A DNA stretch of 64,000 bases from positions 4,469-68,468 of the forward strand of contig JAIEMQ010000041.1 of assembly GCA_019752015.1 (NCBI GenBank), read 5' to 3'. Below, in pieces: positions 42,669-45,600 of this stretch. A program made the position numbers and the translations under genes. The stretch comes from Cyanobacteriota bacterium (GTDB lineage Bacteria; Acidobacteriota; Vicinamibacteria; Vicinamibacterales; UBA2999). The notes beneath the pieces are model-generated. The model did no database searches. It saw only the letters and a program-made list of their open reading frames with translations, and was not told the DNA's origin. Each line of letters begins with the position of its first letter. The stretch's first letter is position 1.

Positions 42669-45600
42669 TTACGCAAGGCTGCCCTGCCGGTCTCCGGCCG
42701 GGATCGCGAGCGGCGCCGCATCGGCGGCGAGCACCGGCCGGAGCCAGCGTGCCACCTCCGCCAACGTGAGGCCCTTTCGCCGGGCGTAATCTTCCGCCTG
42801 ATCCTGTGCGACGCGCTGGATCGCGAAGTACTTCGACTGCGGATGTGAGAAGTACAGGCCGCTGACCGATGCGGCCGGCGTCATCGCAAACGACTCGGTG
42901 AGATCGAGGCCCTGCGACCGCGCGTCGAGCAGTGTGAACAGCCGCCCTTTTTCACTGTGATCGGGGCACGCCGGGTAGCCGAATGCCGGGCGGATGCCGC
43001 GATACTTCTCGTCGATCAGATCCTCATTCGACAGCGTGCCGCCGAAGCCCCAATCCGTGCGCGCCTGCGCGTGCAGATACTCCGCGAAGGCTTCGGCGAG
43101 CCGATCGGCGATCGCCTTGACGATGATGGCCGAGTAGTCGTCGTGCGCGGCCTCGTATTTCCTGACGAGCGCGTCGACGCCAATGCCGGCGGTCACGGCA
43201 AACGCACCGACGTAGTCGGTCACGCCGCTGTCGACCGGCGCCACGAAATCCGACAGCGATCGGTTCGGCTTGTCGTCGGCGATCAACTCTTGCTGGCGAA
43301 GCATCGGGAAGCGCGCCAACTCCCGGGAGCCGGGAGCCGGGAGCGGGGAGCCGGCAGAAGCCCTTCCGGCTCCCGGTTCCCGGTTCCCGGTTCCCGTCCA
43401 CAGCACGATGTCGTCGCCGTCGCTGTTCGCCGGCCAGAAGCCGTAGACGCCTCTGGCGCGGATCAGTTTGCCGTTGACGATCTCCTTCAGCAGCTTCTGC
43501 GCGTGATCGTAGAGATCCTTCGCCGCCTTGCCGATTTTTGGATCGTCGAAGATCTTCGGGAAGCGGCCTTTCAACTCCCACGCCGCGAAAAAGAATTGCC
43601 AGTCGATGAACGGCACCAGGTCTTCGAGCGCGACATCGACTTTCCGTAACCCCGTGAACGACGGCACCGCCGGATTCGAATAATCGAGCTTCAACCGGTT
43701 GGCGCGCGCCTGCGCGATCGACAGCGTCGGCCGATCCTTGCGGCCGGCATGCTGCTCGCGAAGCCTGGCCTGCGCGGCCCGGTTCGAATCGTCGAACGCC
43801 TGCTTGTTGTCCCGGCTCAACAGGCTCGCGACCACGTCGACCACGCGTGATGCGTCCGGGACGTGCACCGTCGGCTGCGAATACTCCGGCGCGATCTTGA
43901 CCGCCGTGTGCTGCGGGCTCGTGGTCGCGCCGCCGATCAGCAGCGGCAGCGTCATCTTTCGCCGCTGCATCTCCGCGGCGACGAACACCATCTCGTCGAG
44001 CGACGGCGTGATCAGTCCGCTCAGGCCGACGATGTCGGCCTTGTTGTCGACCGCCGCCTGGAGGATCTTGTCGGTCGGCACCATGACGCCGAGGTCGACG
44101 ACCTCATAGTTGTTGCAGCCCAGGACCACGCCGACAATGTTCTTGCCGATGTCGTGGACGTCGCCTTTGACGGTCGCGACCACGAGCTTGCCCTGCGCCT
44201 GGCGCGTGCCGCCCCGGGCCTCGAGCGCTTTTTTCTCGGCCTCCATGAAGGGCTCGAGATACGCGACCGCCCGCTTCATGGCGCGGGCGCTCTTGACGAC
44301 CTGCGGCAGGAACATCTTGCCGGCGCCGAACAGCTCGCCGACCACCTTCATGCCGTCCATCAGCGGCCCTTCGATGACGAGCAGCGGCCGCCCGTACTTC
44401 ACGCGCGCCTCTTCGGCGTCCTGCTCGATGAAGTCGACCATGCCGTGCACCAGCGCATGCGACAGCCGCGCTTCAACCGCGCCCTGTCGCCACTGCAGAT
44501 CGGTCTCGCGCTTCGAGGCCGACCCCTTGACCTGCTCCGCGAATGCGACCATGCGTTCGGTGGCGTCGGGACGGCGATTGAAGATGATGTCTTCGACGTG
44601 CTCGAGCAGATCCTTCGGGATGTCCTCGTAGACCACGAGCTGCCCGGCGTTGACAATGCCCATGTCCATGCCGGCCTTGATGGCGTGGAACAGGAACGCC
44701 GAGTGGATCGCTTCGCGGACCACGTCGTTGCCGCGGAACGAGAACGACAGGTTGCTGACGCCGCCGCTGATCTTCACGCCGGGGCACGTCGCCTTGATGA
44801 TCGTCGTCGCCTCGATGAAGTACTTCGCGTAGTCGTTGTGCTCTTCGAGGCCGGTCGCGATGGCCAGGATGTTCGGATCGAAAATGATGTCCGACGGATC
44901 GACGCCGGCTTTCTCCGTCAACAGCGTGTAGGCGCGCTGGCAGATCTGGACCTTGCGCTCGACGGTGTCGGCCTGTCCCGTCTCGTCGAACGCCATCACG
45001 ATCATCGCCGCGCCGTAGCGGCGGATGGTCTTCGCCTTGTTCAGGAAATCCGCCTCGCCTTCCTTGAGGCTGATCGAGTTGACGACCGCCTTGCCCTGGA
45101 CGCACTTCAACCCGGCCTCGATCACCGGCCACTTCGAGCTGTCGATCATCACCGGCACGCGCGCGATCTCGGGCTCGGTGGCGATGTAGTTCAGGAACTC
45201 GGTCATGCAGGCTTCCGAATCCAGCATGCCTTCGTCCATGTTGACGTCGACGATGTTCGCTCCGCCGCGCACCTGATCGACCGCCACGGCCGCCGCGCCC
45301 GCCCAGTCCTTCGCCTTCACCAGCCGCTCGAACTTCTTCGATCCAGTGACGTTCGTTCTCTCACCAATCATCTGAAAGTTGCTGTCCGGCCTGATCGTCA
45401 AAGGCTCGAGGCCGGACAACTGAGTCAGTCGGGAACCGGGAGCCGGGAGCCGGGAGCCGGTTTCTCGCGGACGCAAGCCCTCAACCGACCTCGCAATCGC
45501 CCTGATGTGATCAGGTGTTGTTCCGCAGCACCCGCCGATGATGTTGACGAATCCGCTCTCGGCGAATTCCTTGATCAGCCCCGCCGTCTCCGCGGGCTGC

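Follow-up and report, generated by a model that had tools for sequence, protein, structure and literature searches.

In-frame heptanucleotide arrays, some as inverted pairs, at a surface loop of methionine synthase in Vicinamibacterales and distant bacteria

Introduction

How can a 73-nt palindrome lie inside the coding region of a highly conserved central enzyme without destroying the gene, and what kind of element is it? The question is raised by metH, the gene for cobalamin-dependent methionine synthase, in a stretch of 64,000 nucleotides (hereafter the window) of contig JAIEMQ010000041.1, positions 4,469 to 68,468, from a bacterium of the Vicinamibacterales (Acidobacteriota). A first-pass annotation, made from the letters alone, had described an element inserted in frame in the S-adenosylmethionine (AdoMet)-activation domain of MetH. 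It had likened this element to those known from Rickettsia, and had hinted at an antisense RNA.

Two kinds of sequence invite comparison. The short tandemly repeated repetitive (STRR) heptamers of cyanobacteria were reportedly described by Mazel and colleagues in 1990, and the Rickettsia palindromic elements (RPEs), which are said to lie in frame inside housekeeping genes, by Ogata and colleagues in 2000. Heptamer repeats are over-represented among bacterial simple repeats and are commonest in large high-G+C genomes, according to a 2007 survey (via PMC4692102, PMC4679880), and slippage has been proposed for them (PMC4679880).

Results

The foldback is an inverted pair of heptamer arrays

The inverted-repeat search of the window gave two arms of 34 nt each (43324-43357 and 43363-43396), which are 85% complementary and 5 nt apart. 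Tandem Repeats Finder (TRF) reported two period-7 arrays at the same place, one with 4.6 copies of CCGGGAG (43323-43354, 92% matches) and the other with 4.4 copies of CCGGTTC (43366-43396, 95% matches). Read by hand on the + strand, the first arm is GGGAGCC GGGAGCC GGGAGCG GGGAGCC; it is followed by a 15-nt spacer, GGCAGAAGCCCTTCC (43353-43367; in the sense of the gene, GGAAGGGCTTCTGCC), and then by the second arm, GGCTCCC GGTTCCC GGTTCCC GGTTCCC. Pairing of the outer GG/CC of the spacer leaves an 11-nt loop. The first description of the element, as a 73-nt foldback with four heptamers, an 11-nt loop and four inverted heptamers, is therefore correct. The foldback consists of two short heptanucleotide microsatellite arrays in inverted orientation, which read on the coding strand as about four GGGAACC units, the 15-nt spacer and about four GGCTCCC units.

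A two-unit pattern with at most 2 mismatches matched 16 times in the window against 4.9 expected, a number reached by none of 100 shuffles, and 11 of the 16 matches are inside metH. Assembly error was considered as a source of the foldback and ruled out, because the same architecture is found in frame in five independent assemblies.

On the + strand the heptamer arms have four mismatches, namely three G·T and one G·G. The folding energy of the foldback was −73.4 kcal/mol (z = −8.9) as RNA of the + strand and −60.0 kcal/mol (z = −4.15) as RNA of the minus strand, which is that of the metH mRNA. Both the predominance of G·T among the mismatches and the weaker hairpin in the message, as noted on first pass, are thus confirmed. 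The three G·T pairs, however, go back to one A/G difference at position 5 of the unit, repeated through three tandem units, and are therefore not three independent events. Of four relatives that have both arms, two (L199 and L201 in our numbering of loci) have A·A mismatches instead, and their sense and antisense folds are −59.5 vs −60.6 and −53.3 vs −51.0 kcal/mol. No σ70-like promoter and no T-tract terminator was found at the hairpin, and Rfam gave no match anywhere in the window.

The arrays are read in frame at the tip of a predicted surface β-hairpin

The MetH protein of the window contains all five expected Pfam domains (S-methyl_trans, Pterin_bind, B12-binding_2, B12-binding and Met_synt_B12) and was aligned end to end to human MetH over residues 5-1245. 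The gene is intact, and the element lies in frame in it as first described, being translated directly before FPMLRQQ. Between the strand ending in DDIVLW and the LRQQ motif there are 32 residues in this protein and 17 in human MetH, as counted against the solved activation-domain sequence; in E. coli MetH the same interval presumably has 14.

An AlphaFold2 (AF2) model of residues 900-1261 was built from a 23-sequence alignment; its mean predicted local distance difference test score (pLDDT) was 52.7, and it was used for the strand-insert-strand topology only. In this low-quality model the extra residues (122-144 of the fragment) have pLDDT below 50 and are flanked by β-strands at 116-121 and 145-151; they are therefore predicted to be disordered and to form the tip of a β-hairpin. 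On this model, a surface β-hairpin of the AdoMet-binding activation domain has the foldback-encoded residues at its tip. The residue counts and the model together bear out the earlier statement that a surface segment just before LRQQ is lengthened.

A second heptamer site in metH, absent from the first-pass annotation, is a single array (45430-45460) whose unit is that of the hairpin's 3′ arm. It is in frame in the linker between the homocysteine and folate modules (Hcy-Fol linker), between the Pfam domains that end at aa 323 and start at aa 364. Since the linker of human MetH is of nearly equal length, this array would occupy a pre-existing linker and add none.

The loop is hypervariable among close relatives, and its arms evolve separately

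The closest named MetH proteins (80-90% identity) are from Vicinamibacterales or Acidobacteriota. In an alignment of 120 close homologues, hypervariability was seen at both the activation-domain loop and the Hcy-Fol linker. The loop has 4 aa (ENGV or DNGV) in many of these homologues and 14 aa, WTA(S/T)EPGRPKK(I/V)AA, in most of the nearest relatives, while a long REPG...GSR(L/I)P(A/D/T)PGSR loop is found in scattered ones (P0002, P0022, P0032, P0037, P0040, P0082, P0085, P0089, P0094, P0098 and others). A few have another palindrome-like loop peptide, RRGGSSDPP. The alignment thus agrees with the earlier expectation that the segment varies among close relatives. In a neighbour-joining tree made without both hypervariable regions, long-loop members were interleaved with short-loop sisters. 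In other metH loci among the matches listed, the loop most often has 15 aa, Y-x-D-x-(S/T)-R-...-(F/H)-x, and it reaches 53 aa elsewhere. Many of the 120 homologues have a peptide with a 7-aa period in the Hcy-Fol linker (e.g. SALQHPST), and the unit types are numerous; we read such peptides as the signature of translated heptanucleotide arrays.

The DNA of seven relatives was obtained by exact-protein look-ups, and a scan of metagenome metH loci gave L001 as the only close relative among the matches listed. Five relatives (L199 to L203) have the architecture and register of the window, with about four GGGAACC-type units, a spacer and about four 3′ units. The spacer is conserved neither in sequence nor in length (7-13 nt in the relatives) and is different in all six species; those of the five relatives include AAAAGACACAGCC, AAACGACTCAACG, AAAGGCCGGC and ACCTGAT. 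The unit of the 5′ arm is mostly GGGAACC across the relatives, and that of the 3′ arm is GGCTCCC in the window, L200 and L202, GGATCCC in L199 and L201, and GACTCCC in L203 and L205. There are 3.1 to 4.9 units per arm among the relatives. L205, where the 5′ arm is missing or has decayed, retains a (GACTCCC)4 array and a 22-aa loop. Its sister L206, with a metH 92.4% identical in nucleotides to that of L205, has an ENGV loop (GAGAACGGCGTC), as has L204, where the element is wholly missing.

Compared with L001, the nearest repeat-free orthologue among the matches listed (89% amino acid identity), the window has a net gain of 45 nt; relative to the ENGV-type orthologues it has 25 aa (75 nt) more in the loop segment. 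As neighbouring residues are different too, allele replacement or growth in situ looks likelier than a clean insertion. The idea of a discrete 73-nt inserted element is not supported.

The arms are internally homogeneous yet never fully complementary, every species having one mismatch per unit, which in the mRNA is A·C or A·A. With the six species as input, RNAalifold gave 28 pairs with a covariation term of +1.31; both sides had changed in 1 of the 28 pairs, and one position per unit was unpaired in the consensus structure. As far as sequence comparison goes, the arms are shown to evolve separately, each being homogenised alone, and there is no sign of selection on pairing.

Copies of the unit also occur among native codons at or beside the loop. 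RFPM is encoded as CGG TTC CCG ATG, containing GGTTCCC, in some orthologues (L001 13100-13117, L005), and the DSR of the canonical loop is encoded as GAT TCC CGG, containing GATTCCC, in L002 (8491-8535). The native codons of DSR (GAY TCC CGN) or RFP (CGG TTC CCG) may possibly have seeded the arrays, a lead only, as seed units were present in just 2 of 40 canonical loops.

Heptamer-built loops recur at the same position in distant MetH

Several loops of 24-31 aa at the same position in distant metH loci are also built of heptamers (Table 1). Four of the proteins concerned are in one 90%-identity cluster, with 266 members named Pedobacter or Sphingobacteriaceae; the fifth, that of L036, is a close relative and is not itself in the collection. 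Within the cluster, overall identity is at least 90% and yet the loop is completely different from one protein to another. About 129 kb of Pedobacter loci contained three period-7 arrays, every one of them in this MetH loop.

The first-pass annotation had proposed that segments of equivalent length but free of repeats in unrelated phyla would speak against its view. The result was mixed. Equal-length segments do exist in Pedobacter, but they contain heptamers; the segments of L048 and L070 (46-53 aa) have no evident repeat by eye, no repeat finder having been run on them.

Heptamer arrays in other genes and between genes

An exact scan for three GGGARCC units, with one genome per species, gave at least 118 loci; among the matches listed were Streptomyces, Gemmatimonadota, Phycisphaerae, Acidobacteriota, candidate phyla and one archaeon. 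Among the matches listed, 14 of the 125 GGGARCC-type arrays have an inverted partner within 70 nt. The loci were fetched by the unit pattern alone, and the host proteins of in-frame arrays, which range from Mfd and PurH to a phage portal protein (Table 1), were confirmed by Pfam. Judged from these matches, the heptamer unit is not clade-specific, and in-frame arrays in linkers, loops and tails appear to be a general habit. The leucyl-tRNA synthetase (LeuRS) ORF of the archaeal locus, L182, has an unusual architecture, with a Ser_hydrolase match (PF06821) falling within the synthetase at aa 312-469; this may reflect a fusion or faulty assembly.

Arrays of six to thirteen GGGAGCC units were found in Streptomyces/Kitasatospora (L094 5085-5175, L107 7416-7506, L158 1161-1230, L174 3177-3232, L149 6811-6852 and L101 1175-1230). 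They share one conserved context, with ...GGATATACTAAGAAACT... before the array and ...ACGTTCGGCCTGTC..GAATGGCTGCT... after it, which suggests a variable-number repeat at one orthologous locus.

Intergenic arrays were found as well. In the window, TRF gave 5.6 copies of ATCAGGG at 34319-34357, and this array fills almost all of the gap between the TAA stop of a 625-aa open reading frame (ORF; 32441-34318) and the next ATG (34360). In L201 (1225-1432), L204 (8866-9002) and L206 (about 8926-8950), intergenic (GGGGCTT)n arrays face inverted (AAGCCCC)n arrays; in L204 and L206 they lie between a DUF349 gene and an ArsR-methyltransferase gene, the latter directly preceding metH and overlapping its start.

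Two protein searches were uninformative. The 30-aa insert peptide gave 0 matches at E ≤ 0.001, but as a low-complexity query it was without power and says nothing on other proteins. A word-indexed search with a synthetic, idealised 52-aa peptide gave only ORFs of 32-91 aa and did not recover the known insert-bearing MetH. All but one of these ORFs are without a Pfam domain, and those named are called "hypothetical protein"; they are probably miscalled repeats.

Table 1. Heptamer arrays of the window, of distant metH loci and of other genes. Coordinates refer to the window unless a locus number is given.
Feature	Coordinates	Strand	Description	Basis
metH, cobalamin-dependent methionine synthase	42669..46454	-	1261 aa	ORF list, translation, Pfam, human MetH alignment
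metH foldback	43324-43396		34+34-nt arms, about 4+4 heptamers	repeat search, TRF, sequence
5′ arm (gene sense)	43366..43396	-	GGGAACC x3 + GGGAGCC	TRF, sequence, translation
Spacer core between heptamer arms	43355..43365	-	encodes part of GRASAG	sequence
3′ arm (gene sense)	43323..43354	-	GGCTCCC CGCTCCC GGCTCCC GGCTCCC, encodes SPLPAPGSR	TRF, inverted repeat
Second heptamer site in metH, single arm	45430..45460	-	CCGGCTC x3 + CCGGTTC	TRF period 7, 4.4 copies, 95% matches
G-quadruplex (G4)-type motif	43325-43348	+		regex
G4-type motif	43372-43395	-		regex
G4-type motif	45431-45454	+		regex
G4-type motif	in 34319-34357 array			regex
Distant MetH, same loop	L041 11656-11745		GRAGTCN x5, spacer, GACTCNR units (GGAGTCC/GGACTCN); −42.8 kcal/mol	
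Distant MetH, same loop	L045, L036		decayed versions of L041-type arrays	
Distant MetH, same loop	L037		(AAATCTC)4	
Distant MetH, same loop	L054		(CAAACTC)4	
Distant MetH, same loop	L062		(CGTCACT)4	
Mfd	L120		in-frame array after TRCF domain	Pfam
COX1	L109		in-frame inverted pair, C-terminal tail	Pfam
PurH	L136		in-frame array inside the protein	Pfam
Pseudouridine synthase	L170		in-frame inverted pair, S4-PseudoU_synth_2 linker	Pfam
S-methyl_trans-MTHFR protein	L160		in-frame inverted pair, linker	Pfam
LeuRS (Nanoarchaeota metagenome-assembled genome)	L182 1711-4962		in-frame (GGCTCCC)4 at about aa 30, near N-terminus	Pfam
Phage portal protein	L090		in-frame array near C-terminus	Pfam

Other repeats in the window

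Several repeats of other kinds were observed in the window. A clustered regularly interspaced short palindromic repeat (CRISPR)-like array near the window edge (222-1272) consists of about 15 copies of GTTGTTCCGCTGAGAAATCAGCGGCCCCATTGAAGC, a repeat of 36 nt that recurs about every 72 nt. At 51795-51956, just upstream of an ATG at about 51981, a 42-nt unit is repeated 3.8 times, with a small hairpin in each unit (GGGTCCGCC TTT AGGCGAACC). At 60467-60700, a long inverted repeat whose arms measure about 100 nt is bracketed by (CACAGATTA)x3 and (TAATCTGTG)x3, and its 9-mer family is seen again at 12630-12657 as CACAGATTAGA x2.5; these two could be a dispersed element or a cluster of binding sites. 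Short tandem arrays are TCTAGA x4.3 (3932-3957), ATCTATTG x5.4 (54200-54242) and AGGCACCC x3.9 (59506-59536).

Discussion

Relation to known heptamer repeats

The metH arrays resemble the heptanucleotide simple sequence repeats (SSRs) of bacteria, which consist of 7-nt units joined head to tail, occur in several unit families per genome and vary in unit number among relatives. In metH, too, the units are head to tail and vary in number and sequence, and other arrays are present, including the intergenic one at 34319-34357. However, the published cases are mainly intergenic, heptanucleotide SSRs being under-represented in coding regions, whereas the metH arrays are in frame in an essential enzyme, form a hairpin with inverted 34-bp arms and occupy the same loop in two phyla.

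Among the described families, the GGGNATC and GGGGA(C/T)T repeats of Xanthomonas and Nostoc (PMC4692102) come close, as these also have one GGG per unit and about four units and thereby give a canonical G4 motif. Four units are reported to be clearly favoured in GGGNATC repeats (PMC4692102). The GGGATCA array at 34319-34357 abuts a stop codon and ends 2 nt before a start codon, a position described in the same work, but the metH unit is GGGARCC and not GGGNATC. The TAACTGA repeats of Beggiatoaceae, Cyanobacteria and Bacteroidetes (PMC4679880) are likewise direct heptamer repeats of 2-6 units; unlike the metH arrays, they are AT-rich, lie overwhelmingly upstream of start codons and contain stop codons in the forward orientation. 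They were proposed to regulate translation, and no recurrent in-frame site in a conserved enzyme was described for them, while a few heptamer sets inside ORFs and one inverted set have already been described (PMC4679880). In the open-access full text, we came across neither a conserved enzyme with in-frame inverted heptamer arrays nor a case of their recurrence in one loop across phyla.

Probable growth of a microsatellite at a permissive loop

We consider it probable, at about 60%, that the foldback is a heptanucleotide microsatellite that expanded in the form of an inverted pair at a permissive β-hairpin tip, and that the inserted residues are probably near-neutral for the enzyme. As 7 is not a multiple of 3, the unit of an in-frame array is read in all three frames and gives a peptide with a period of seven residues, GNREPGT from GGGAACC and GSRLPAP from GGCTCCC. 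By the genetic code, neither unit has a stop codon in any frame, and both encode peptides rich in Gly, Ser, Pro and Arg. This restricts the persistence of such arrays to places that can accommodate additional flexible residues, which in MetH are the activation-domain loop and the Hcy-Fol linker.

Replication slippage would give birth to the arrays and resize them, and concerted evolution would homogenise each arm alone. The inverted arrangement would probably come from a fold-back or template-switch event, and deletion or recombinational allele exchange may account for the patchy presence among close relatives. The protein would gain about 15-25 disordered residues and would probably be unaffected. 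The hairpin, and the G4 motif on each strand, would be by-products of the repeats and not a selected RNA element, and the constant mismatch in each unit may keep the palindrome stable in the DNA and protect it from deletion.

Several points weigh against growth by slippage at a merely tolerant site. The 4+4 register is kept at only 82-86% metH identity, which is too stable for a freely slipping microsatellite. In about 245 kb of Vicinamibacterales loci, most of which were picked for carrying the insert, there are 15 arrays in metH and 11 outside it; those outside metH that were checked against gene calls in these loci are intergenic, and none was found in frame in another gene. The clustering in Pedobacter, with three of three arrays in one loop, is free of that selection bias. 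A purely neutral, genome-wide process would not obviously concentrate arrays in metH. The stable register and the concentration in one loop in two phyla still allow, with low probability, for selection on structure or for a process specific to the site.

Alternative explanations

The alternative that survives best is a selected nucleic-acid structure, namely an mRNA hairpin or G-quadruplex that would slow ribosomes, protect or target the message, or pause replication or transcription. If structure and not sequence matters, different lineages would keep different units. This would suit the use of unrelated units in the same loop of two distant phyla (GGGAACC/GGCTCCC against the units of Pedobacter, and CGTCACT in L062), the wholly different loops of Pedobacter proteins at least 90% identical, the confinement of all three period-7 arrays of 129 kb of Pedobacter DNA to this loop, and the 4+4 register kept in six Vicinamibacterales species. 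A scan for G4 motifs (at least four G3 tracts, 1-7 nt apart) points the same way: it gave four motifs in the window, all four of them heptamer arrays and three in metH, that at 43372-43395 being the only one of the window on the metH mRNA strand. The Markov expectation for the window is 1.2 ± 1.05, however, and four motifs are not far above it; the parallel with the four-unit GGGNATC repeats is therefore a lead and not a result. Moreover, covariation is missing, and the mismatch in each unit has never been repaired although GGGAGCC/GGCTCCC would encode acceptable residues. The element is wholly missing in the close sisters L204 and L206; the 5′ arm is absent or decayed in L205 and partial in L037 and L054, with weak folds of −11.8 to −13.2 kcal/mol. 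The site is also inside a domain, and not at a boundary where a pause for folding would be expected. We therefore regard a selected structure as unlikely.

The second alternative is a small mobile palindromic element inserted in frame, of the RPE type, of the type of repetitive extragenic palindromes (REPs) and the hairpins formed by REP pairs (REPINs), or of the MITE type (miniature inverted-repeat transposable elements). The metH element shares with RPEs its palindromic DNA and its in-frame place in a conserved housekeeping gene at a tolerated surface site, and with REPs/REPINs (PMC3116915, PMC3733652) a short G+C-rich imperfect palindrome able to form a stem-loop. Its patchy presence among close relatives and the similar double-array hairpins at unrelated loci and taxa would also fit mobility. 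RPEs, however, are dispersed copies of a 100-150-bp consensus, whereas the metH element has 73 nt, tandem 7-nt units and no conserved spacer or ends. REPs are extragenic, high in copy number, marked by a GTAG/CGTC tag (PMC3733652) and linked to RAYT transposases, whereas the metH element is intragenic.

Our tests argue against membership in any of these families. The copies share only the 7-nt unit, and the spacer is different in every species. No target-site duplication (TSD) or direct repeat was seen in the sequence at the flanks, and no GTAG or CGTC tag at the ends, where AACTCC is followed by CGGGAGCC and, on the other side, GGTTCCCG by TCCACA. The two-unit pattern search of the 64-kb window found no copy of the foldback repeat outside metH and two sites within it. 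As regards MITEs, the arms are tandem arrays of variable unit number, and the relatives free of the element differ by replaced neighbouring codons, not by a clean insertion. Because of the results for spacer, TSD, tag and dispersed copies, RPE, REP/REPIN and MITE membership fails. The likeness to RPEs drawn at first is not supported, and a mobile element of any of the three types is quite improbable.

A phase-variation switch is slightly less probable again. Gain or loss of a 7-nt unit would shift the frame and leave MetH off or truncated, and it would be restored by another slip, either in that array or in its partner. The unit length is not a multiple of three, one gene carries three arrays, the unit number differs between relatives, and heptamer repeats drive such switching in Haemophilus (PMC8262952, PMC2651432). 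But all 120 homologues listed are full length and in frame (119 of 1221-1269 aa and one of 1175 aa), with the reservation that gene callers and protein databases would hide frameshifted alleles; efficient slippage would need longer tracts than these of about four units, the 5′ end of the gene is not close to any of the arrays, and it is not obvious how stochastic loss of a central housekeeping gene such as metH would be of benefit.

The least probable explanation is that the + strand hairpin is part of an antisense RNA overlapping metH, as was hinted on first pass: the + strand does fold more stably, with three G·U in place of A·C, but this asymmetry is one substitution copied to three units and is missing in L199 and L201, and no promoter-like site, T-tract terminator or Rfam match was found at the hairpin.

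Implications

Heptamer microsatellites are oddly abundant in many bacteria, yet they have been little studied and are treated as intergenic. The case of metH shows that a central, highly conserved enzyme can accommodate heptamer arrays in its reading frame, that such arrays add short disordered peptides to linkers and loop tips, and that they can pair into very stable hairpins while the gene is not destroyed.

A bolder and rather doubtful proposal is that the MetH β-hairpin tip is a cross-phylum hot spot, at which arrays, many of them able to form hairpins, are repeatedly created, held at about 4+4 units and replaced unit by unit. If this were true, it would mean more than passive tolerance: the arrays would be generated by a site-specific mechanism, or their DNA or RNA structure would be under selection, for instance as a pause in translation or transcription or as two frameshift-prone arrays that compensate for each other. 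The MetH loop, with its arrays in both Acidobacteriota and Bacteroidota, provides a concrete, testable system for asking whether such structures are tolerated or used. If the growth of heptamer microsatellites in permissive places is general, it would be a simple mutational route to longer and more diverse loops and linkers in bacterial proteins, and would explain some of the "low-complexity" segments in protein alignments.

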